A stretch of 64,000 nucleotides of DNA from Sphingobacteriales bacterium. Its GTDB lineage: Bacteria; Bacteroidota; Bacteroidia; Sphingobacteriales; Sphingobacteriaceae. Position numbers and translations under genes: made by a program. Numbering within the stretch: position 1 is the first letter of the stretch; each line of letters starts with the position of its first letter. Shown in pieces: positions 20,494-60,028 of this stretch. Location: assembly GCA_013298995.1 (NCBI GenBank), contig JAAFJW010000001.1, positions 1,047 through 65,046 of the forward strand, read 5' to 3'. The notes below the pieces were generated by a model. The model was not told where the DNA came from. It did no database searches and saw only the letters and a program-made list of their open reading frames with translations.

Positions 20494-21705
20494 ATGAAAA
20501 TCATTCTGCCGCCTAATATTCAAAAACGACCTCATTACATAAATAGGGTTTTGCCTTTTATGGGTAAGCAAATTTTGAAAGTATTTACGGGGCAGCGTAG
20601 GGTGGGTAAAAGTTATTTGCTTTTTCAACTAATGGCAATTATTGAAGAAACCAAACCAGAGGCACATATTATTTACATAAATAAAGAAGATTTAGCATTT
20701 GCATACCTAAAAAATGCAGATGATTTGTATGCTTATGTACTTGCAAACAAAACCAATAACGGGTTTACTTATTTATTTATTGATGAAATTCAAGATATTT
20801 TGGAGTTTCACACCGCACTTAGGTCGCTTTTGTTGCTCAACGATGTAGATATTTATTGCACCGGAAGCAATGCCCATTTACTTTCGGGCGATATAGCAGG
20901 ATATTTAAGTGGTAGATATATTGAAATAGTAGTATATAGCTTGTGTTATGAAGAGTTTATGAGCTTTCATAATTTAGAAAATAGTGTAGCTACACTAGAA
21001 AAATACCTCAAATACGGTGGGCTGCCTTATCTTAAACATTTACCATTACAAGATGAAATTGTATTTGAATATTTAAAAAACATATATGCCACCATTGTAT
21101 ATAGAGATATAATAAATAGATATGCCATAAGAAATATTCCGTTTTTAGAGCAGTTGGTTTTGTTTTTGGCTGGAAATATTGGGAGTTTGTTTTCTGCAAA
21201 AAAAATTAGCGATTTTTTAAAATCACAACGTACAAACATTGCACCTAACCAAGTGCAAACGTATATTCATTATTTAACATCCGCTTTTTTAATACACCAA
21301 GTAAAACGATATGATTTGGTAGGCAAACGACTATTTGAGATAAGTGATAAATATTATTTTGAAAATCTAGGTATTCGCCATGCTTTGTGGGGATATAAAA
21401 TAGAAGACCGTGGCAAAATAATAGAGAACGCAGTTTACAACCATTTACTCTATCAAGGTTATACGGTGAAAGTGGGTATCATTGGCGATGTAGAAATAGA
21501 TTTTGTAGCAGAAAAGCAAGGAGAAATTAAATATATACAAGTTGCCTTATCGTTGAACGAAGAAAAAACAATAGAAAGAGAGTTTGGAAATCTTAAAAAA
21601 ATAAAAGACAATTACCCCAAAATGGTGGTTACGCTTGATGAATATGATGGAAATACCCATGAGGGGATAATTGCTATGGATTTAAGGAGTTTTTTAAGCG
21701 AATAA
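20494..21705 (+). CDS. AAA-family ATPase with DUF4143-like C-terminal domain (copy 1)
   Basis: 403 aa. Walker A GQRRVGKSY, Walker B YLFIDEIQ, and a C-terminal region with EIDFV (restriction-endonuclease-like tail typical of AAA_14/DUF4143 proteins). Confidence 0.8.
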   Translation: MKIILPPNIQKRPHYINRVLPFMGKQILKVFTGQRRVGKSYLLFQLMAIIEETKPEAHIIYINKEDLAFAYLKNADDLYAYVLANKTNNGFTYLFIDEIQDILEFHTALRSLLLLNDVDIYCTGSNAHLLSGDIAGYLSGRYIEIVVYSLCYEEFMSFHNLENSVATLEKYLKYGGLPYLKHLPLQDEIVFEYLKNIYATIVYRDIINRYAIRNIPFLEQLVLFLAGNIGSLFSAKKISDFLKSQRTNIAPNQVQTYIHYLTSAFLIHQVKRYDLVGKRLFEISDKYYFENLGIRHALWGYKIEDRGKIIENAVYNHLLYQGYTVKVGIIGDVEIDFVAEKQGEIKYIQVALSLNEEKTIEREFGNLKKIKDNYPKMVVTLDEYDGNTHEGIIAMDLRSFLSE

Positions 21706-24161: not shown

Positions 24162-25130
24162 ATGCTCGATAAACAATTTCCAGAGATAATTTCCTTAATC
24201 AAACAATCAAGAAATTATGCTTTAAAAGTAGTAAATACAACTTTGGTTGATTTATATTGGAGTATTGGCGAATATATTAGCAATAATATTAAAAATAAAA
24301 ATTGGGGAGATAGTGTGGTTGAACAGTTGGCTTTGTATATTGTACAAAACGACTCTAACCTTAAAGGTTTTTCTGCCAAAAACCTTTGGCGAATGAAGCA
24401 ATTCTATGAAACGTATAATGATTTTCCAATTCTCTCATCAATGACGAGAGAATTGAGTTGGACGCACAATCTTACTATTTTTTCAAGATGCAAAACCCAA
24501 GAAGAACGTGAATATTATCTCAACCTCTGCAAAACAGAAAATTATTCAGTTCGAGAATTAGAAAGGCAAATATCAGCATCTAGCTACGAACGCAAAATGC
24601 TATCAAAACCAATTCTCTCGTCATTGATGAGAGAATTGCAAATAAATGACAATCATGTATTTAAAGATAATTATGTGTTTGAATTTTTGAATTTGCAAGA
24701 TTCGCATTCTGAAAATAATTTGCAAAAAGCGTTAATTTTACAACTCAAAAATTTTATGTTAGAAGTAGGCAAAGATTTTTTATTTGTATCCGATAATTAC
24801 TGTTTGCAAGTAGGAAACCAAGATTTTTACATTGATTTGCTATTTTATCACCGAAGCTTACAATGTTTAGTTGCATTTGAGCTGAAAGCAGATAGGTTTA
24901 AACCCGAGCATTTGGGTCAACTTAATTTTTATTTGGAAGCCTTAGACAGAGATGTTAAAAATGCAAAAGAAAACCCAAGTATTGGCATTTTGCTTTGTAA
25001 AGATAAAGATACCGAAGTGGTAGAATATGCCCTAAACCGTAGTCTTTCACCTACTATGGTGGCAGATTATACAATGAAGCTCCCCGACAAAAAGCTATTG
25101 CAACAAAAATTACACGAAATGTTGAAGTAA
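24162..25130 (+). CDS. YhcG/DUF1016-family PDDEXK-type nuclease-like protein
   Basis: 322 aa. N-terminal region ...LVDLYWSIGEYI...KGFSAKNLWRMKQFYETY...RELSWTHN. C-terminal D...ELK core (IDLLFYHRSLQCLVAFELK). Confidence 0.75.
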   Translation: MLDKQFPEIISLIKQSRNYALKVVNTTLVDLYWSIGEYISNNIKNKNWGDSVVEQLALYIVQNDSNLKGFSAKNLWRMKQFYETYNDFPILSSMTRELSWTHNLTIFSRCKTQEEREYYLNLCKTENYSVRELERQISASSYERKMLSKPILSSLMRELQINDNHVFKDNYVFEFLNLQDSHSENNLQKALILQLKNFMLEVGKDFLFVSDNYCLQVGNQDFYIDLLFYHRSLQCLVAFELKADRFKPEHLGQLNFYLEALDRDVKNAKENPSIGILLCKDKDTEVVEYALNRSLSPTMVADYTMKLPDKKLLQQKLHEMLK

Positions 25131-38845: not shown

Positions 38846-39055
38846 AAGAGAATTTTAAACAATAACCCTTCAATAGGCAAAAGTTTCCCAATTGGGGATG
38901 TAAATGCGTTAGCAAAAATTATTGAACATTATTTTAATAATCCTGTTGGCCTTATGGCAACAAAAACAAACGCTTACCAATTGGCTAAAAATCAATTAAA
39001 TTGGGAATACGAAAGCAAAAAGTTTATAAACACTATTAAACTTTGCATGAAATAA
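38846..39055 (+). pseudogene. 3' remnant of a GT4 glycosyltransferase gene (tail A)
   Basis: Open frame ...PSIGKSFPIGDVNALAKIIEHYFNNPVGLMATKTNAYQLAKNQLNWEYESKKFINTIKLCMK* without an N-terminal part. Homologous tails at 39215-39292, 43321-43395 and 44140-44340. Confidence 0.65.
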
Positions 39056-39116
39056 CTTTTCCTTAAACCTAATACATACATTAACTATAAACACTTGGTT
39101 TAAAATCACGTACCTT

Positions 39117-39210
39117 GTCACTCTGAACGAAGTGAAGAGTCTCAAAGAGCGTATGGTTAGACTTTTCACTTCGTTCAGAGTAACAAATCAGAGTGACAAA
39201 TCAGAATAGC
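39117..39210. repeat. Hairpin/13-mer element, copy 1 (solo)
   Basis: Arms GTCACTCTGAACGAAGTGAAGAGTC (39117-39141) and GACTTTTCACTTCGTTCAGAGTAAC (39160-39184). Followed by degenerate units AAATCAGAGTGACAAATCAGAATAGC. Confidence 0.85.
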
Positions 39211-39223
39211 AAGCAACCAAGCA

Positions 39224-39346
39224 AAAAATCAATTAAATTGGGAATGCGAAAGCAAAAAATTTATAAATACTATTAAATTTTGCATGAAATAACTTTTCCT
39301 TAAACCTAATACATACATTAACTATAAACACTTAGTTTAAAATCAC
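39224..39346. repeat. 123-bp direct duplicate of 38987-39109 (GT tail end plus 55 bp)
   Basis: Constant offset of 237 bp with a handful of substitutions. The two copies bracket hairpin copy 1. Confidence 0.85.
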
Positions 39347-39429
39347 TAAACTAAATTTTACTTCTATATTTAAAATGAAATTAACCATTTTAAATATGTT
39401 ATTTTTGAAATATAAAAATGTAAAACGAA

Positions 39430-39663
39430 ATGACTAGCACCCTCCTTCAAAACCAAATCATAAACTTACTGCCATTGGTAGAAAACAAAAAAATATTAAA
39501 AGCAGTGCATACTATTTTGGAGCAAGAAGCTAAGCCTCACAGCCTCACACAAGCCCAAATGGATGAACTCGACCGCAGAGAAGCGTCTTATCTTCGAGGC
39601 GAAGGCAAGAGTTATACTTGGGAAGAGGTACAAAATAATATTCTAAATAAAAAGCGAGAATAA
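39430..39663 (+). CDS. Putative addiction-module antitoxin
   Basis: 77 aa. ...LTQAQMDELDRREASYLRGEGKSYTWEEV is typical of the small 'addiction module component' antitoxins that precede ParE/RelE. Confidence 0.6.
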   Translation: MTSTLLQNQIINLLPLVENKKILKAVHTILEQEAKPHSLTQAQMDELDRREASYLRGEGKSYTWEEVQNNILNKKRE

Positions 39664-39665
39664 TT

Positions 39666-39959
39666 ATGTACAATGTAGAACTAAGTGATGAAGCACAGTT
39701 TGACCTTGATGAAGCCTACATTTGGTACGAGTTACAACAAGTAGGTTTAGGAAAAAGACTTGTTTTGTTGGTTCGTGATTATATGCAAATATTAAAAGCA
39801 ACACCCGAGCAGTTCCCAACCATTCATAAAAACAAGCGAGCAGTATATATCAAGGATTTTCCTTATCAAATTATTTTTACAATTTACGCAGATGTAGTTG
39901 TAGTTTTTTCAATATTTCACACCAAACGCAACCCTAAAGTTTGGAAAAAGCGAACTTAA
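39666..39959 (+). CDS. ParE/RelE-family type II toxin
   Basis: 97 aa. ...DLDEAYIWYE...FPYQIIFTIYADVVVVFSIFHTKRNP is typical of the family. Lies 3 bp after the antitoxin. Confidence 0.75.
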   Translation: MYNVELSDEAQFDLDEAYIWYELQQVGLGKRLVLLVRDYMQILKATPEQFPTIHKNKRAVYIKDFPYQIIFTIYADVVVVFSIFHTKRNPKVWKKRT

Positions 39960-40099
39960 ATTTCCATGAGTATATCTAAATCTGAAATGGCTATAAACGA
40001 AACCAAGTAAGCAGAAATACTCGGTTCAATACAAATAATAATATCTTAGGTTTTTCTTTAGCACTCCATAAGGCGAATAAAAATTATGAATAAGCTTGA

Positions 40100-40400
40100 T
40101 TCCATAAATCCATAAGTTACAAAAGTATCCACTCTTATAGGCTCGGCACAAGGCTTTGTGGCCAAAGCCGTAAACAAAGGCATGGTGTTGCTGTATTGGA
40201 ATATTGGCTAAACCATACAATACGAAATCATACAAAGCGAGCGAGCCGAATACGGCAAATGAATTGTGCAGACACTGTCTGCACAATTGATAATAGATTT
40301 TGGTAAAGGATATAATTATCGCACCCTATATAGAATGGTGCGTTTTTATGAAACATTCCCAGATTTCCAAACAGTGACGACACTGCTGTCACAATTCAGT
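40100..40400 (+). pseudogene. YhcG/DUF1016 N-terminal fragment with in-frame stops
   Basis: Reads ...AKAVNKGMVLLYWNIG*TIQYEIIQSERAEYGK*IVQTLSAQLIIDFGKGYNYRTLYRMVRFYETFPDFQTVTTLLSQFS. This parallels residues about 20-105 of the intact copy at 24162. The track ORF 40026..40286(-) is antisense noise. Confidence 0.7.
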
Positions 40401-40417
40401 ACAAAATAACTCGATAC

Positions 40418-40438
40418 TATGGTTCGCTTTGTTGCAAA
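40418..40438 (+). repeat. Isolated copy of the 21-bp core TATGGTTCGCTTTGTT(G/A)CAAA
   Basis: Preceded by ACAAAATAACTCGATAC, which matches the spacer of the downstream array. Begins where YhcG homology ends. Confidence 0.8.
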
Positions 40439-40482
40439 GTGCTTACATTTACATAGTTTAAATGATATAATCTAACATATAT

Positions 40483-40863
40483 ATGGGCTTAGTAAAAACT
40501 AACATCAAACTTTCAAATCCTAGATTTCCAGAGATGAATGCCATAGAAGTGGTAAGTTTAGTAGATACTGGTGCTTTGCACCTTTGCATTACCGAAACGC
40601 AATGTATTCAACTTAAGCTAGAAACCGCAGAAAAGCGCCCTGTAACTTTGGCGGATGGTTCTACACAAATTATACCTTATGTTGGCCCTATAAAAGTAGA
40701 TTGGAAGGGCAGGATAAGCTACACAGGTGCGATGGTTTTGGGCAACCAATGTTTATTGGGAGCAATACCAATGGAGGATATGGATGTTTTGGTGCATCCA
40801 GCCCTACAAATTGTAATTGCTAACCCACTACATCCTAATATACCAGCTTCGGTGGCGTATTAA
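40483..40863 (+). CDS. Retropepsin-like (clan AA) aspartic protease, copy 2
   Basis: 126 aa. LVDTGALHLCI and LLGAIPMEDMDVLVHP. Paralog of 19733..20152. Confidence 0.7.
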   Translation: MGLVKTNIKLSNPRFPEMNAIEVVSLVDTGALHLCITETQCIQLKLETAEKRPVTLADGSTQIIPYVGPIKVDWKGRISYTGAMVLGNQCLLGAIPMEDMDVLVHPALQIVIANPLHPNIPASVAY

Positions 40864-40881
40864 GATAAATTTCATACAAAA

Positions 40882-41001
40882 TATGGTTCGCTTTGTTACA
40901 AATAATCACTAAAATATGGTTCGCTTTGTTACAAAATAACTCCATATTATGGTTCGCTTTGTTACAAAAAAACACAAAATTATGGTTCGCTTTGTTACAA
41001 A
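40882..41001 (+). repeat. Four tandem 33-bp units (21-bp conserved core + 12-bp variable spacer)
   Basis: Cores start at 40882, 40915, 40948 and 40981, a period of exactly 33. The core is TATGGTTCGCTTTGTTACAAA. Confidence 0.9.
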
Positions 41002-41005
41002 TTTT

Positions 41006-41013
41006 TATATTTG
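41006..41013 (+). promoter_or_regulatory. Bacteroidota -7 box (TATATTTG) in the palindrome TTACAAAT-N6-ATTTGTAA
   Basis: 29 bp upstream of ATG 41042. Confidence 0.4.
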
Positions 41014-41041
41014 TAAAGTTAAATTTAATTAATGCAAAGCA

Positions 41042-42382
41042 ATGTATTATAGAAAAATAATTACTGAACTTTTATTATGGAAAGATAAAATAAATCGTAA
41101 ACCATTGATTTTGAGAGGTGCAAGGCAAGTTGGCAAAACTACTATAGTTAATCATTTTGCTACTTACTACAATCAATTTATAAACTTAAATTTAGAAAAA
41201 ATTACTGATGCCCAATTATTCTTAAATTATACTACAATTGATGGCTTAATTAAGAGTATATTTTTTTTACATAATGCCAATCTAGACAAAAAAGAAAACA
41301 CCTTAATTTTTATAGACGAAATTCAAGAAGTACCCTATGCTATTAATTTGCTTCGCTATTTTTATGAAGATTTTCCACAGATACACGTCATTGCTGCTGG
41401 TTCGCTTTTAGAAACGATACTTACCGAAAATATTAATATTCCAGTAGGTAGAGTAGAATTTTTGGTACTACGCCCAGTAAGTTTTAGCGAATTTTTGGGT
41501 GCAATGTCCGAAAAACAATCATTAGAATTAATTAAGAGCCATGAAGTACCTGATTATGCTCACGACAAATTGATGACATTATTTCACACCTATACACTGA
41601 TAGGTGGTATGCCCGAAATTGTAAAATCTTACGCAGCGGATAAAAATTTAACTTCGCTTAAAAAAATATACGATTCGCTTTTAATTGCTTACCAAAACGA
41701 TTTTGAAAAATATGCCAAAAATAGCACACAGGTACAAGTATTGCGTCATGTTATCAAATCAATAGGTACAGAAACAGGCAATAGAATAAAATTTGAGCGT
41801 TTTGGAAACTCAAACTATGGTAGCCGAGAAGTGGGAGAGGCTCTTCGCACCCTCGAAAAAGCCATGTTGATACAACTGATATACCCAAGTATTAGCACCA
41901 AATATCCTATACAAACGGATTATAAAAAATCGCCAAAACTTCATTTTTTAGATACAGGCTTGTTTAACAAACTAGCAGGGATTCAAAAAGAATTAGTAAG
42001 AAGTTTAAATGTAGAAAGCGTACACCAAGGCAAAGTGGCCGAACACATTGTGGGGCAGGAATTGCTTACTACTAGCTTTTCGCCTTTGCATGAACTCAAA
42101 TTTTGGACCCGAGAAAACAAAGATGCCAACGCTGAGGTAGATTATTTATATGAATATGAGGAAATGCTTTTTCCTGTAGAAGTAAAATTAGGTGCTGCTG
42201 GCAGATTGCGTTCGTTACATAGTTTTATAGATACGGCAGCGCATAACATTGGTATAAGAGTATCTTCAAACCATTTTAGTGTAGAAAATATAAAAACCAT
42301 TGCAGGAAAACCAGCAAAACTGATAAATTTACCTTTTTATTTGCTTGATGCTTTGGATAAAATTTTAAACGTTCATGTATAA
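41042..42382 (+). CDS. AAA-family ATPase with DUF4143-like C-terminal domain (copy 2)
   Basis: 446 aa. Walker A GARQVGKTT, Walker B LIFIDEIQ. The C-terminal EVDYLYE...FPVEVK is a nuclease-like tail. Confidence 0.8.
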   Translation: MYYRKIITELLLWKDKINRKPLILRGARQVGKTTIVNHFATYYNQFINLNLEKITDAQLFLNYTTIDGLIKSIFFLHNANLDKKENTLIFIDEIQEVPYAINLLRYFYEDFPQIHVIAAGSLLETILTENINIPVGRVEFLVLRPVSFSEFLGAMSEKQSLELIKSHEVPDYAHDKLMTLFHTYTLIGGMPEIVKSYAADKNLTSLKKIYDSLLIAYQNDFEKYAKNSTQVQVLRHVIKSIGTETGNRIKFERFGNSNYGSREVGEALRTLEKAMLIQLIYPSISTKYPIQTDYKKSPKLHFLDTGLFNKLAGIQKELVRSLNVESVHQGKVAEHIVGQELLTTSFSPLHELKFWTRENKDANAEVDYLYEYEEMLFPVEVKLGAAGRLRSLHSFIDTAAHNIGIRVSSNHFSVENIKTIAGKPAKLINLPFYLLDALDKILNVHV

Positions 42383-42737
42383 ATGCTTTATAATCAAGTA
42401 ATAAATGCAACACGGAAAAATCTAAGAAAGCAGGGGAAAAACTGAACATAAAAGCCGAATTTTTTCCCTGCTTGTGGTGATAAGAAAACCTCATATCTTT
42501 AGGTTACAACACTCAATAAAATACGAAACACTTAACATTAGAACAAAAGTATAAAATTACGGTACTTAAATCCGAAAATTATACACAATCAAAAATTGCT
42601 TATTAATTGAAATTATAAACGCTGTACCATCAATAAATACATGCTTACACCGCTAACAGATTTTAATCAGTTTAATGATATGTTAGATTTTTGGCTTTGC
42701 CTGAATAGTTTTTAAGCTTTTTTTAACGAGTAACCTT

Positions 42738-42824
42738 TTCACTCTGAACGCTGCCTGCCACTCTGAACGAAGTGAAGAGTCTCAAAGAGCGTATGGTTAG
42801 ACTCTTCACTTCGTTCAGAGTGAC
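42738..42824. repeat. Hairpin/13-mer element, copy 2 (left part of the occupied site)
   Basis: TTCACTCTGAACG-CTGCCTG-CCACTCTGAACGAAGTGAAGAGTC, loop, GACTCTTCACTTCGTTCAGAGTGAC. Confidence 0.9.
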
Positions 42825-42901
42825 AAAGGGTATTCGGCATGTAAAAAAGGCGTTTATTCATCGGTTTACCCAAAAAACTTATTTTAAAAACATTTACCGT
42901 T

Positions 42902-43201
42902 ATGAGAGAACATAATTACTTTGTTTACATCATCACAAACAAAAATAAAACGGTACTTTACACTGGCGTAACCAATAATTTAAAACGACGCCTATACGAG
43001 CATGAACATGGTATAGCAGACTCTAGCAATACATTTACAGGTAGGTACAATGTACATTATTTGCTATATTTTGAACATTATCAATACATATTAGACGCAA
43101 TAGCCCGTGAAAAACAAATAAAAGGTTGGACAAGAGCCAAAAAAGAAAAAATAATTTCGGATTTTAACCCTAATTGGGATTTTTTAAACGAAGAGATTTA
43201 G
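42902..43201 (+). CDS. GIY-YIG domain protein (small stand-alone nuclease-like)
   Basis: 99 aa. YFVYIITNKNKTVLYTGVTNNLKRRLYEHEHG (GIY...YTG, R, E motifs) and ...REKQIKGWTRAKKEKII. The TAG stop overlaps the repeat. Confidence 0.85.
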   Translation: MREHNYFVYIITNKNKTVLYTGVTNNLKRRLYEHEHGIADSSNTFTGRYNVHYLLYFEHYQYILDAIAREKQIKGWTRAKKEKIISDFNPNWDFLNEEI

Positions 43202-43281
43202 ACTCTTCACTGCGTTCAGAGTGACAAGAGGGCGTTCAGAGTGACAGGCAGCGTTCAGAGTGAAAAGGGCATTCAAAGTAA
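43201..43281. repeat. Second copy of the hairpin right arm plus an array of CGTTCAGAGTGA units
   Basis: GACTCTTCACTGCGTTCAGAGTGAC, then units at 43233-43245 and 43252-43264, and a degenerate CATTCAAAGTAA. Confidence 0.9.
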
Positions 43282-43320
43282 TAAAAGGTATCAAATAAAA
43301 ACAAAACCTGTTTATATATT

Positions 43321-43395
43321 TTAGCTAAAAATCAATTAAACCGAGAAAAAGAAATCGAGAAATTTATAGGGATTGTTAAATTGTATATTCAATAG
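43321..43395 (+). pseudogene. GT4 tail remnant (tail B, last 24 codons)
   Basis: LAKNQLNREKEIEKFIGIVKLYIQ*, compared with LAKNQLNWEYESKKFINTIKLCMK* at 38981-39055. Confidence 0.6.
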
Positions 43396-43444
43396 CCATT
43401 TTTAAAAGTTTAATTAATACATTTGAATAAGAAATTTTACAGCC

Positions 43445-43672
43445 ATGGTATCAAACAAACCAACAAAACTAAATACGGTACAATTACATTTGCTGAAAAT
43501 GTTTGAGAAAAATACCAATGATAATGATTTAAGTGAAATAAAAGTATTATTATCTAATTATTACGCAAAAAAAGTAGATGCAGAATCTGATAAAATTTGG
43601 AGCGAAAAAGATTTGAATGAAGCAGATATAGAAAAATTATTGCATACACATATCCGTACTAAATACAAATAA
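43445..43672 (+). CDS. Putative antitoxin of the downstream PIN protein
   Basis: 75 aa, helical and acidic. The stop is adjacent to or overlaps the PIN frame. Call by position. Confidence 0.4.
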   Translation: MVSNKPTKLNTVQLHLLKMFEKNTNDNDLSEIKVLLSNYYAKKVDAESDKIWSEKDLNEADIEKLLHTHIRTKYK

Positions 43673-43698
43673 GGGTATTAATTGATACCAATGTTTTA

Positions 43699-44076
43699 TT
43701 GGCTATTTTACCGAAGAAATCGAAAGAAAGGTGGTTGTTTGATAAGCTACGAAGCCATCAGTTAACCCTAATTTTATCAAACGAGATTATTGAAGAATAT
43801 GATGAAAAAATATCTTGGTTCTATTCAGCTTATCTTTTGGAGTTAGTGCTAGAAGAAATTTTAAATTTACCTTTAACCGAGTGTTTTGAAGCCTATTTTA
43901 AATGGCAACTTATTTTTACCGACCCAGATGATAATAAATTTGTAGATGTAGCAATTTCATCAAATGCAGATTACATTATCACTAATGATAAACATTTTAA
44001 AGAATTGGATAAAATCGAATTCCCAAAAGTAAATCACATCACGTTAAATAATTTCAAAAATTTATTTGCAAATTAA
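43699..44076 (+). CDS. PIN-domain toxin (TIGR00305-like), start codon unclear
   Basis: ...FTDPDDNKFVDVAISSNADYIITNDKHF is typical. The conserved N-terminal RVLIDTNVLLAIL lies in frame upstream of the first canonical start (TTG 43699), back to a stop at 43660, with no ATG/GTG/TTG. Confidence 0.65.
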   Translation: MAILPKKSKERWLFDKLRSHQLTLILSNEIIEEYDEKISWFYSAYLLELVLEEILNLPLTECFEAYFKWQLIFTDPDDNKFVDVAISSNADYIITNDKHFKELDKIEFPKVNHITLNNFKNLFAN

Positions 44077-44139
44077 AAATACGTGATTGGTTTTAAAATT
44101 TTGCTCAAAAATAGTTTTTTGCAAGTATTCTTTGGTTAG

Positions 44140-44340
44140 TAAGAGTGCTCCAATTGGAGATGTAAATACGCTTTCAAATAATATTAAATATTATTTGAAC
44201 AGCCCTGCTGGGTTGCTAAAAACAAAAATTGCGACAAGCAACTTAGCTAAAAATGAGTTAAACAGGAAACCCGAAAGCAAAAAGTTTCTAAGTATGATAA
44301 ACGGCATTACGAGTAACCCTGCTACACTGATTTGTTACTC
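44140..44340 (+). pseudogene. GT4 tail remnant (tail C)
   Basis: ...SAPIGDVNTLSNNIKYYLNSPAGLLKTKIATSNLAKNELNRKPESKKFLSMING... runs without its own stop into hairpin copy 3. It is part of the track ORF 44087..44356. Confidence 0.55.
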
Positions 44341-44473
44341 TGGTTTGTCACTCTGAACGAAGTGAAGAGTCTCATAAGAGCGTATGGTTAGACTCTTCAC
44401 TTCGTTCAGAGTGACAAGGGGGCGTTCAGAGTGACAGGCAGCGTTCAGAGTAACAAGGAGCGTTCAGAGTTAC
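44325..44473. repeat. Hairpin/13-mer element, copy 3 (unoccupied site)
   Basis: Inverse units TGATTTGTTACTCTGGTTT, then hairpin 44347-44415. Units CGTTCAGAGTGAC (44423), CGTTCAGAGTAAC (44442) and CGTTCAGAGTTAC (44461) follow. Confidence 0.9.
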
Positions 44474-44531
44474 AATAAAACAATCAGCGTTACAAAAAGC
44501 ATCAAATAAAAGCATAAATAAAAGCCAATAA

Positions 44532-45833
44532 TTGAAAACCGTACTCATTATTTCCCCTTACTTCCCGCCCAGCAACGCAGCCGATATGCAACGCATACGT
44601 ATGAGTTTGCCTTTTTTTAAAGATTTTGGATGGCAAGCCGAGCTTGTTATTGTAACCCAGCAACAGTCTGATATAAATAAAGATGCTTTACTGCTACAAT
44701 CAATCCCAAACAATATTAAAATACACACGGTAAAAGCTTTTTCCAAAAAATATACCTCAAAGTTAGGTTTAGGCAGTTTAGCCTTGCGTAGTTTATGGTT
44801 TTACAAACAAAAAGTAAACAAGCTATTAAATACAAAAAAATACGATTTAATTTATTTTTCTACTACACAGTTTCCTGTTTGTATTTTGGGGCCTTACTGG
44901 AAAAATAAATTTAATATCCCTTACGTAATTGATATGCAAGACCCTTGGCATTCGGATTACTACCAAAACAAACCTAAAAACGAACAGCCACCCAAATATT
45001 GGTTTAGCTACCGTTTAAATAAGTATTTAGAACCCATTGCCATGAAAGCCGTTGATGGCTTAATAAGTGTTTCGGATGCTTATATCCAAACTTTACAACA
45101 CAGGTATGCAAACACCAAAAATATTCCCACAGCAACCATAACCTTTGGCGCATTTGCTAAAGATTTTGAAATTGCTACCCAAAATCAAGCACTTGCACCA
45201 TCGGTAATTAAACAAAATAAAACCAAGTTAAATATGGCTTACATTGGCCGTGGCGGTGCCGATATGCAGCCAGCGGCTATTTTGCTTTTTAAATCTTTTA
45301 AGGTAGGATTAGCAAATTATCCCGAAGTGTTTAACCGATTTAAAATTTACTTTTTAGGTACCAGCTACGCACCAGCTGGGCAAGGTAAACCCAGCATACA
45401 GCCTATAGCTAATGAAATGGGTTTAGCAAACTATGTATCCGAGCAAACCGATAGAATAGCTTTTTATCAAACCCTAAACACTTTAAAAACTGCAGATGTG
45501 CTATTTATACCTGGCTCGGACGATCCGCAATATACAGCCTCAAAAATATACCCTTACTTAATGGCACAAAAGGCATTGATAAGCATTTTTAACCAAAATA
45601 GTAGTGCAACAAAAATTATTGAAGAATGTGAGGTAGGTTTAGCCTTAACTTTTGATATGGCCGAAGAAATTATTACAGAAAAAATTATCAACTATTTATT
45701 GGCTGTGGCCGATGGTAGCGTAATAATCAACCCTCCTAAAGCTAAAATATTTGAAAACTATTCGGCCAAAAACATGACTAAGTTGCAAGTTGAATTATTT
45801 AACAAAGTTTTGGTTTGCCAACGCAAGCCATAA
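44532..45833 (+). CDS. Putative GT-B glycosyltransferase
   Basis: 433 aa, TTG start with no ATG nearby. The N-terminus KTVLIISPYFPPSNAADMQRIR is typical of GT4-like EPS enzymes. Confidence 0.45.
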   Translation: MKTVLIISPYFPPSNAADMQRIRMSLPFFKDFGWQAELVIVTQQQSDINKDALLLQSIPNNIKIHTVKAFSKKYTSKLGLGSLALRSLWFYKQKVNKLLNTKKYDLIYFSTTQFPVCILGPYWKNKFNIPYVIDMQDPWHSDYYQNKPKNEQPPKYWFSYRLNKYLEPIAMKAVDGLISVSDAYIQTLQHRYANTKNIPTATITFGAFAKDFEIATQNQALAPSVIKQNKTKLNMAYIGRGGADMQPAAILLFKSFKVGLANYPEVFNRFKIYFLGTSYAPAGQGKPSIQPIANEMGLANYVSEQTDRIAFYQTLNTLKTADVLFIPGSDDPQYTASKIYPYLMAQKALISIFNQNSSATKIIEECEVGLALTFDMAEEIITEKIINYLLAVADGSVIINPPKAKIFENYSAKNMTKLQVELFNKVLVCQRKP

Positions 45834-45874
45834 AGCAAATGTTAAGTTTTAAACAAAAATCACACAATAACTGC

Positions 45875-45882
45875 TATATTTG
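45875..45882 (+). promoter_or_regulatory. Bacteroidota -7 box (TATATTTG) within ATCACACAA...TTTGTGAT
   Basis: About 38 bp upstream of ATG 45920. Confidence 0.4.
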
Positions 45883-45919
45883 TGATAAAAATCACAGTTT
45901 AAACACTTAATATGTGAAA

Positions 45920-47245
45920 ATGCAATTTAAAAGACACCTTGAAACCAATTTGCTGGAATGGAAAAATAGCACAAACCGCAAACCCTTAGTTTTAAATGGA
46001 GCAAGACAGGTAGGCAAAACGTATTTAATGAAATGGTTAGGAAAAAATCATTTTCAAGATTTTGCTTATTTTAATTTTGACGAAAAACCCGAACTTAAAC
46101 AGTTTTTCGAAAACACAAAAGATGTAGCCCAAATTATCGAAAACCTTTCACTGGTAAACGGTGGTAAAATTAATAACCACACACTATTGATATTTGACGA
46201 AATACAAGAGTGTATGCCTGCATTAAACACACTTAAATATTTTTACGAAAACAAACCCGAACTTTGTATTATATGTGCTGGTTCGTTATTAGGTATTTCG
46301 TTAGGTAAAACACATTCTTTCCCTGTAGGTAAAGTTAATTTTTTAACCCTTTACCCTTTATGTTTTGCTGAGTTTTTAAGTCAAGCCGAACCTAGTTTAC
46401 ACAGGTATTTAAGTGGTATTGATGCTTTAAATGCCATACCCGATATATTTTTTACATCATTAAAAGATAACTTTAAAAAATACTTAGTTACAGGGGGCTT
46501 GCCAGCAGTTGCTTTGGCTTTTTTAGAAACCAAAGATTTTGCATTTGCCGATATGGTATTAAAAGATTTGATACGATCGTATGAACTCGATTTTGCCAAA
46601 CACCCCATTACCAAAGATGTTGCCAAAATAAGCCATGTATTTAATTCGATACCTTCGCAATTAGGCAGAGAGAACAAAAAATTTATTTATCAATTAGTAA
46701 AACCAGGTGCCCGAGCTCGCGAATACGAAGATGCTATTAGGTGGCTAGAGCAAGCGGGTTTAATTTATAAAATTTATTTGTGCAAAACACCTAAATTACC
46801 CTTAATGGCTTATGATGATTTAAGCGCATACAAAATATATGTTTTTGATGTAGGTATTTTACGAAAACTTTCGCAATTAGCCTCCATTGCTTTTACAGAA
46901 GGTGATAGATTATTTGTTGAGTTTAAGGGTGCTTTAGTAGAAAATTATATTTTGCAAAGTTTAATACCACAATTAGAAGTTATACCCCGATATTGGACTT
47001 CGGGAAACCAAGCCGAGGTTGATTTTATAATGCAAATACAAAACCAAATTATACCAATAGAGGTAAAAGCCGACGAAAATGTGCGTAGTGCAAGCCTTAC
47101 CTTATACGCTAATAAATTTTTACCTTTTATTAAGTTAAGGTATTCGATGAAAAACCTATCGTACAAAGATGGATTATTAAATATACCGCATTTTATGGCC
47201 GATTATACCACACAATTAATAAAAATGGTTCAAAAAATCAGCTAA
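45920..47245 (+). CDS. AAA-family ATPase with DUF4143-like C-terminal domain (copy 3)
   Basis: Walker A GARQVGKTY, Walker B LLIFDEIQ. The C-terminal EVDFIMQ...IPIEVK is clearly related to copy 2. I prefer ATG 45920 over GTG 45914. Confidence 0.8.
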   Translation: MQFKRHLETNLLEWKNSTNRKPLVLNGARQVGKTYLMKWLGKNHFQDFAYFNFDEKPELKQFFENTKDVAQIIENLSLVNGGKINNHTLLIFDEIQECMPALNTLKYFYENKPELCIICAGSLLGISLGKTHSFPVGKVNFLTLYPLCFAEFLSQAEPSLHRYLSGIDALNAIPDIFFTSLKDNFKKYLVTGGLPAVALAFLETKDFAFADMVLKDLIRSYELDFAKHPITKDVAKISHVFNSIPSQLGRENKKFIYQLVKPGARAREYEDAIRWLEQAGLIYKIYLCKTPKLPLMAYDDLSAYKIYVFDVGILRKLSQLASIAFTEGDRLFVEFKGALVENYILQSLIPQLEVIPRYWTSGNQAEVDFIMQIQNQIIPIEVKADENVRSASLTLYANKFLPFIKLRYSMKNLSYKDGLLNIPHFMADYTTQLIKMVQKIS

Positions 47246-56337: not shown

Positions 56338-56415
56338 TGGTGGGAGATACTGGGTTCGAACCAGTGACCCCCTGCTTGTAAGGCAGGTGCTCTGAACCAG
56401 CTGAGCTAATCTCCC
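56338..56415 (-). tRNA. tRNA-Val (anticodon TAC), CCA encoded
   Basis: Hand-folded cloverleaf: acceptor GGGAGAT/ATCTCCC, D stem GCTC/GAGC, anticodon stem CCTGC/GCAGG with loop CTTACAA, T arm ACTGG-TTCGAAC-CCAGT, discriminator A plus CCA. Confidence 0.9.
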
Positions 56416-59867: not shown

Positions 59868-59927
59868 ATTAATTTGCTTTAGAGGGTTGTTGTTGCTCAA
59901 TGATTTTTGTTTTTTAGGTGCGTTAAC

Positions 59928-60028
59928 GATTGCAACGGCATCCTTTTTATCCATAGCCCCCATCTTGGGCTGTTGGCAAATGGGGGCTATGGATAAAAAG
60001 ATATAGTGCAAAGCGTGTTAAAACGCCC
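59928..60028. repeat. GC-rich nested-palindrome element, copy B
   Basis: GTGCGTTAACGAT...CATCCTTTTTATCCATAGCCCCCA / TGGGGGCTATGGATAAAAAGATA...AAGCGTGTTAAAACGCCC. The outer frame is shared with 15606-15731. Confidence 0.8.

Follow-up and report, generated by a model that had tools for sequence, protein, structure and literature searches.

A 64,000-nt stretch of contig JAAFJW010000001.1 (positions 1,047 to 65,046 of the forward strand; assembly GCA_013298995.1) from a Sphingobacteriales bacterium, referred to below as the window, carries the gene of a small GIY-YIG nuclease inside a cluster of short hairpin repeats. The locus is very probably an Ssn-type system, in which a small GIY-YIG gene lies among clustered hairpin repeats that are oriented and cognate to it, and in the same reading the repeats are SRM-like and belong to the superfamily of repetitive extragenic palindromes (REPs) tagged with CGTC or TGTC. 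The interpretation is carried by the anatomy of the locus, by covariation within the repeat, by the homology of the nuclease with SsnA of Neisseria and by the association between the gene and the repeat. Systems of this kind were known before: Ssn was published in 2025 and the repeats were catalogued in 2013. What is new is a repeat class outside the published pattern, a fold supported by covariation, phased arrays of half-sites, and a pair of sites of which one bears the gene and the other does not.

The nuclease and its relatives

SsnA of Neisseria meningitidis, the founding member of the Ssn family of cd10448-type GIY-YIG nucleases, is a 94-aa single-domain enzyme and was shown to bind the NTS repeats around its gene in a single orientation and only as single-stranded DNA (ssDNA; Chenal et al. 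2025, PMC11893778). It cuts only ssDNA, a few nucleotides upstream of the NTS; the 3 nt ahead of the NTS palindrome are critical, as is the C that follows it, and Y6, Y17 and E64 are the positions that were mutated in the SsnA work (PMC11893778). In the window protein the PF01541 domain spans residues 5-82, and no second domain was found. An earlier note on the window, made from its letters alone, had described a 71-bp leader, a 99-codon GIY-YIG open reading frame (ORF) and a TAG stop overlapping a repeat copy, and all of this was confirmed at 42825-43201. The stop codon occupies 43199-43201, and the G at 43201 is common to the stop and the repeat arm.

The window protein matched the SsnA ortholog of N. 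gonorrhoeae by tblastn at E = 2e-11 in a 7.3-Gb database, the gonococcal and not the meningococcal protein being the one compared; the homology threshold of the published study is tblastn E < 1e-10 (PMC11893778). Pairwise BLASTP against the same ortholog gave 39% identity over 85 aa (E = 2e-20). The gonococcal matches were two N. gonorrhoeae chromosomes found in a tblastn search of a plasmid collection. Their ORF is 94 aa long, its numbering fits Y6/Y17/E64, and canonical NTS lie around it, one of them 2 nt past the stop; judged by these sequence features, it is the SsnA ortholog. In a 21-sequence alignment, Y9, Y20, R30, H34 and E70 of the window protein were invariant, and Y9, Y20 and E70 align with the meningococcal catalytic residues Y6, Y17 and E64. 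About 8000 relatives were found at E 1e-5, all of them of about 100 aa. The only relatives in the PDB were the UPF0213 proteins 1zg2 and 1ywl (E about 0.007), and the homing-endonuclease profile TIGR01453 scored 18.6 bits, far under its 56-bit cut-off.

Two observations concern the gonococcal records themselves. Two complete N. gonorrhoeae chromosomes sit in PLSDB as plasmids (one of them is NZ_CP119142.1), and at locus L131 (NZ_CP119142.1 1880219-1883464) the ssnA ortholog has its ATG in a different frame from the conserved reading frame.

The repeat unit, its arrangement and its link with the gene

Three loci with a shared 68-69-bp hairpin had been reported in the earlier note. The loci exist, the second starting at 42757 and not at 42758, and the arms are real, the right arm of the first hairpin carrying two mismatches. 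The 25-nt arm was found in seven window copies at ≤3 mismatches, where 0.00 were expected, namely at 39117/39160, 42757/42800 and 44347/44391 and as a solo arm at 43201. The 13-mer CGTTCAGAGTGAC was found in 13 copies at ≤2 mismatches, where 0.19 were expected, and all window copies of both arm and 13-mer are confined to 39117-44473. Each 25-nt arm is an oriented repeat in its own right, and the 13-mers are the 5′ halves of the repeat unit. The full unit is 27 nt long, T-GTC-[ACTCT GA AC GNA GT GA AGAGT]-C-T, and is laid out as a T-GTC tag, 5 bp, a tandem G·A/A·G, 2 bp, a GNA triloop and a terminal C-T.

A scan of 185,579 species genomes with the query ACTCTGAACGNAGTGAANAGTC (20 fixed bases, about one chance match expected) found the repeat in at least 120 loci, where it is mostly solo and extragenic. 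The matches listed belong to Bacteroidota, Ignavibacteriota, Syntrophomonadaceae and other Bacillota, Chloroflexota, candidate-phyla bacteria, Desulfobacterota and further groups. When these loci, called the repeat-first loci below and counted as listed, were scanned by Hamming distance, 233 full units with 83 distinct 25-mers were obtained. Among the distinct 25-mers the fold ...(((((..((...))..))))). had 52 double-change cells compared with 16.3±3.0 after shuffling (0/500), and its covariation score was 0.314 compared with at most 0.084 in slid controls. Since covariation supports this small hairpin and the alternative at the energy minimum shows none, each arm is its own element; that alternative, a single-arm stem TCACT/AGTGA proposed by ViennaRNA DNA folding, was rejected on the same ground. 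Conservation spans T(-1) to T(+26) and is lost in the flanks, and the T-GTC and C-T tags are kept in 148-174 of 174 units. Only 9% of the units in the repeat-first loci lie in long open frames, compared with 79% of all bases. The earlier note had proposed that the unit containing the nuclease targets or generates the long hairpins. The link between nuclease and repeat stands, while the covariation indicates that the recognition unit is likely to be a single arm of 25-27 nt folded on itself. The repeat sequence, used as a literal string, had no match in the literature searched.

The association of gene and repeat was seen from both directions. In the repeat-first loci listed, a relative of the window protein was encoded in 9 of 120, and the repeat tightly bracketed the gene in 8 of these 9. 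For the gene-first sample, 80 metagenome loci were picked by the protein alone and searched with a generic detector (GTC, an A-led 5-bp stem, a 3-25-nt interior, the complementary stem and C). Motif density was 4.18/kb within 300 nt of the gene and 0.23/kb elsewhere, an 18-fold enrichment, with at least one unit within 300 nt in 66/80 loci and at least two in 51/80. The tandem-GA interior (GA...GA) was present in 167 of the 183 gene-first units. The stem letters differed widely among these loci (TTCT, TTCC, TCCT, CTCT, TTTC and others), and proteins that share a stem variant were slightly more alike than those that do not (55.6% and 52.5% identity, respectively; 0/1000 permutations). Among the relatives a unit lay at most 7 nt from the stop codon in 18 of 43 cases, and the commonest flank arrangement was inverted with the tags outward (22/35). 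The window gene is flanked on both sides, by units at 42800 and 43201 in the same orientation. Nuclease and repeats belong together, and the proposal of the earlier note that they form one system is borne out by the flanked repeat-first loci, the gene-first enrichment and the homology with SsnA.

Two repeat units joined head to head make up the 68-nt hairpin. The window holds three such inverted pairs (39117-39184, 42757-42824 and 44347-44415) with near-identical spacers of 18, 18 and 19 nt, and in the Hamming scan of the repeat-first loci the ratio of head-to-head to tail-to-tail dimers was 14 to 1. The 13-mer array is a recurrent feature of the repeat and not specific to the window. The repeat-first loci contained 32 solo 5′ halves where about 4 were expected. 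In unrelated genomes and phyla among the loci listed, these halves lay either 18-21 nt (mode 20) 5′ of a full unit or 17-20 nt 5′ of a second half; half-sites can be seen, for example, at L055 3000-3064 and L058 4968-5012. Degenerate half-sites with a 13-nt period are also present beside hairpins 1 and 3 of the window, and 53 nt near the dimer 1 half-sites are 89% complementary to 44320-44372. A CRISPR-like array was considered and rejected, as the spacers are just 6-7 nt. The short ORFs that run through the repeats (42739-42915, 38996-39169 and 44087-44356, with peptides such as ...HSERSEES... and ...LFTSFRVT...) are repeat artefacts and are liable to be mis-called as hypothetical proteins. 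The features of the cluster are collected in Table 1.

Some results weigh against an Ssn-type interpretation. The published SRM pattern, HGTCWYN(0-2)YYVSBRHN(0-5)WNVSBRGN(0-2)RNCYNB, had no match in the window and matched 0 of the 233 units in the repeat-first loci listed, whereas the identical script found 8 NTS in 3.2 kb of the N. gonorrhoeae locus. A single arm folded as ssDNA reached only -2.3 kcal/mol (z 0.55), no better than its shuffles; we attribute this to the energy model, which gives no credit to sheared G·A pairs and GNA triloops. Finally, the 25-bp long hairpin of a dimer would compete with the small hairpins, and dimer 3 as ssDNA folded at -33 kcal/mol (z -12).

Table 1. Repeat units, half-sites and nuclease gene of the cluster (window coordinates)
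Feature	Position	Strand	Remarks
Full unit, probably SRM-like, TGTC-tagged; left arm of dimer 1	39117..39141	+	exact 25-mer GTCACTCTGAACGAAGTGAAGAGTC
Full unit; right arm of dimer 1	39160..39184	-	2 mismatches
Two degenerate 5′ half-sites, TCAGAGTGAC and TCAGAATAGC	39188..39210	-	13-nt period
5′ half-site	42738..42750	+	19 nt 5′ of full unit
Full unit; left arm of dimer 2	42757..42781	+	1 mismatch, GCC for GTC
Dimer spacer, 18 nt, TCAAAGAGCGTATGGTTA	42782..42799	.	kept in all three window dimers (96%)
Full unit; right arm of dimer 2, upstream direct repeat of cassette	42800..42824	-	
AAAGGG spacer and 71-nt leader	42825..42901	+	partly conserved in closest relatives
ssn-like gene, 99-aa single-domain GIY-YIG nuclease	42902..43201	+	PF01541, E 3.7e-16
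Full unit abutting stop codon; downstream direct repeat of cassette	43201..43225	-	
5′ half-site array: 43233-43245, 43252-43264, degenerate 43270-43282	43233..43282	-	19-nt period
Two degenerate 5′ half-sites, GCTACACTGA and GTTACTCTGG	44321..44343	+	13-nt period
Dimer 3: + unit 44347-44371, 19-nt spacer, - unit 44391-44415	44347..44415	.	gene-less counterpart of site 2
5′ half-site array: 44423, 44442, 44461, degenerate 44481	44423..44493	-	19-20-nt period

Gene-bearing and gene-less sites

When 42825-43225 (401 bp) was deleted from site 2, the remainder aligned to 44347-44458 with 107/111 identities and one gap, and with the flanks included the identity was 88% over 184 nt. The earlier note had read the two as an occupied and an empty site. 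The pairing itself holds, but the 401-bp insert is bounded by 34-nt direct repeats, and for this reason recombination or slippage is sufficient to account for it and the junction is unplaceable. Because the flanks beyond the repeats are also common to both, sites 2 and 3 are paralogous segments and not separate insertions into unrelated targets. Unequal recombination or slippage between the 34-nt repeats is the most likely source of the difference between the gene-bearing site (42757-43268) and the gene-less one (44347-44458). Two further features described in the earlier note were found again, namely the resumption of the array after the second repeat copy, with two 13-mers at 43233-43264, and the composite palindrome, in which 42734-42769 is 97% complementary to 43233-43268. 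In the closest relative (L223 1090-1734, 89% identity) the order is dimer-leader-gene-dimer-leader-gene start. In this arrangement, the reciprocal product, the dimer-leader-gene unit is duplicated in tandem, unless the order reflects an assembly loop.

The cluster lies within a polysaccharide-biosynthesis locus of about 40 kb that encodes a Wzc-like kinase and numerous glycosyltransferases and also has MBOAT and ABC genes. Toxin-antitoxin pairs, a clan AA protease, three AAA_14/DUF4143 ATPases and a YhcG nuclease break up this locus. Coding-like remnants are present beside all repeat sites (38846-39055, 39221-39346, 43321-43382 and about 44138-44302). The remnants at 38846-39055 and about 44138-44302 are 53% identical over 55 aa (BLASTP 3e-19), and the last 126 nt of the former are duplicated at 95% across hairpin 1. 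A Pfam search of the remnant ORFs beside the hairpins gave no match; they resemble the C-terminal ends of glycosyltransferase genes that may have been replaced. As the remnants and the 126-nt duplication adjoin the repeat sites, these sites coincide with recombination scars and not with every module boundary. The earlier note had placed hairpins at every module boundary of its second island, and this did not hold, since there are none at 39959-40483, 40863-41042 or 45833-45914. Integron-like cassettes were considered because hairpins separate the gene modules, and neither an integrase nor a recombinase turned up in the window.

Among the neighbours, the paralogous AAA_14/DUF4143 ATPase genes are at 20494-21705, 41042-42382 and 45914-47245, the YhcG PDDEXK nuclease at 24162-25130, a ParE/antitoxin module at 39430-39959 and a PIN module at 43699-44076. 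A 33-nt tandem repeat with the core ATATGGTTCGCTTTGTTACAAA is present in 5-6 copies at 40844-41034 (and at 40380-40438), directly upstream of the ATPase gene at 41042-42382. Flavo-1 RNA (52.2 bits), indicative of a Flavobacteria-type host, was found at 59912-60024 and a tRNA gene at 56341-56415.

Three exact homolog proteins each had one conserved context, in 16, 6 and 7 contigs: the trpD-trpC gap (16 contigs), a polysaccharide locus, and a position beside a GH3 gene. These contexts show that genes of this type occupy the intergenic gaps of conserved operons, and one fixed context per exact protein argues against frequent transposition. A homologous nuclease gene lies in the trpD-trpC gap of a trp operon at L121 3818-4457, and another inside a different polysaccharide locus at L213 2573-3644, each bracketed by its own stem variant.

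The contexts bear on whether the nuclease gene moves on its own. The earlier note took the nuclease for part of a self-contained mobile or recombinogenic unit. In a scheme of autonomous mobility, either of the homing type or of the peel-and-paste type of IS200/IS605, the nuclease would nick ssDNA at the repeats, and the gene with one repeat (401 bp) would move or be copied into the gene-less dimers, the dimers being its non-autonomous, REPIN-like derivatives. The position of a gene-bearing and a gene-less composite site only 1.6 kb apart would fit this scheme, and so would the co-oriented repeats that flank the window gene, which put the predicted cuts on one strand and would release the gene with one repeat. 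The intergenic homologs such as that between trpD and trpC, the tandem duplication in the closest relative, the occurrence of an identical 25-mer in many phyla, and the insertion-sequence-like architecture of Ssn loci remarked on by the authors of PMC11893778 also speak for it. We nevertheless consider it unlikely. With 34-nt direct repeats around an insert that needs no transposition and flanks that are paralogous beyond the repeats, the sites do not require movement, and in the relatives the inverted flanks, which are the commonest, would place the predicted cuts on opposite strands. The exact proteins stay in their single contexts. Moreover, GIY-YIG enzymes hydrolyse, and none is known to rejoin strands. 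A further version, in which repeat-ssn-repeat is a mobile or homing ssDNA element, the dimers are nicked, the 401-bp unit is copied in or peeled out, the arrays are footprints of cleavage and repair, and the sites act as module exchange points, is more doubtful still. If it were true, the element would be a GIY-YIG counterpart of REPIN-RAYT, and its sites would exchange toxin-antitoxin pairs and ATPases in surface-polysaccharide loci.

It is also possible that the nuclease is uninvolved, and that the sites, the half-site arrays and the duplicated flanks of this variable polysaccharide locus come from ordinary homologous recombination and from slippage of replication among short repeats. We take this possibility seriously but lean against it. 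It accounts for the 34-nt direct repeats that bound the 401-bp unit, the 126-nt direct duplication flanking hairpin 1, the paralogous coding remnants at all three sites and the tandem unit in L223. It leaves unexplained, however, the repeat architecture at the gene in 66/80 relatives, the fixed half-to-unit spacing of 18-21 nt in unrelated phyla and the conservation of the 27-mer across phyla. That the hairpins are transcription terminators or RNA-level elements, with the nuclease gene an unrelated neighbour, is very improbable. The 68-nt dimers are indeed very stable as single strands (-33 kcal/mol) and lie downstream of genes, and REPs as a class are frequently transcribed (PMC3733652). However, the hairpins are not followed by a T-run, no terminator-like site was called and no Rfam family matched at any of them, and both readings were rejected. 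It is also the sequence and the orientation tags that are conserved across phyla, not the stem alone, and the link between gene and repeat is strong.

Relation to known systems

The locus shares with Ssn/NTS a single-domain GIY-YIG protein of about 94-100 aa, 39% identical and with the same catalytic residues, a gene bracketed by oriented hairpin repeats of which one abuts the stop codon, and a repeat in which a GTC tag lies 5′ of the palindrome, the first pair is A-T and a C follows at the 3′ side. Both have numerous extragenic repeats that cluster near surface-structure genes. In contrast to the continuous, GC-rich 8-bp stem of the NTS, the stem of the window repeat is broken by a tandem G·A and ends in a GNA triloop; its tag is TGTC where that of the Neisseria NTS is CGTC. 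The window cluster also has arrays of 5′ half-sites and a Flavobacteria-type host, and its system is known from sequence alone.

REPs tagged with CGTC or TGTC have been catalogued in Proteobacteria, Chlorobi, Bacteroidetes and others, mostly as head-to-head dimers with conserved spacers, and the authors reported no dedicated enzyme for them (Di Nocera et al. 2013, PMC3733652). They resemble the window repeats in being short extragenic palindromes with the tag at one end, an A-T first pair and stems of 8-9 positions, and in forming such dimers. They differ in that no partner is assigned to them there, whereas the partner in the window and in PMC11893778 is a GIY-YIG nuclease. The REP/REPIN-RAYT systems (Bertels and Rainey 2011, PMC3116915; Nunvar 2010) likewise have a single-copy nuclease gene flanked by its own repeats, dispersed inverted doublets that form long hairpins, and recognition of an ssDNA hairpin, which in the window system is presumed. 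However, RAYT is an HUH/Y1 transposase with covalent intermediates and the window enzyme is a GIY-YIG hydrolase, and the tag is GTAG in place of (C/T)GTC. With a GIY-YIG partner and a TGTC tag, REPIN-RAYT is an analogy only. GIY-YIG homing endonucleases of the I-TevI type share the catalytic domain and the small free-standing cassette beside a presumed target, but they have a separate DNA-binding domain and cut double-stranded DNA, whereas the window protein is without a second domain.

In the mechanism that we propose for the Ssn-type system, the unit as ssDNA would fold into a short interrupted hairpin with the GTC tag at its 5′ side and the C at its 3′ side. By homology with Neisseria SsnA, the protein would bind this hairpin in ssDNA alone and in one orientation, and would cut a few nucleotides 5′ of the tag. 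Most copies are solo or in head-to-head dimers that form the 68-nt hairpins, and repeats bracket the gene. At the junctions of accessory modules in the surface-polysaccharide locus, the cluster may mark or modulate recombination of ssDNA intermediates.

These results extend the Ssn system to a large branch, mainly of Bacteroidota type, with about 8000 relatives at E 1e-5. Ssn genes were reported to have cognate repeats in 71% of cases (PMC11893778), and this is probably an underestimate because the published pattern misses the repeats of this branch. The 27-nt candidate recognition element, near-invariant across phyla, is a candidate for the ssDNA tools proposed by the Ssn authors, and with the natural substrate pair 1.6 kb apart one could ask if these systems move or just recombine. 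Finally, the findings support the view that Ssn nucleases are the missing partner enzyme of the CGTC/TGTC-tagged REPs.

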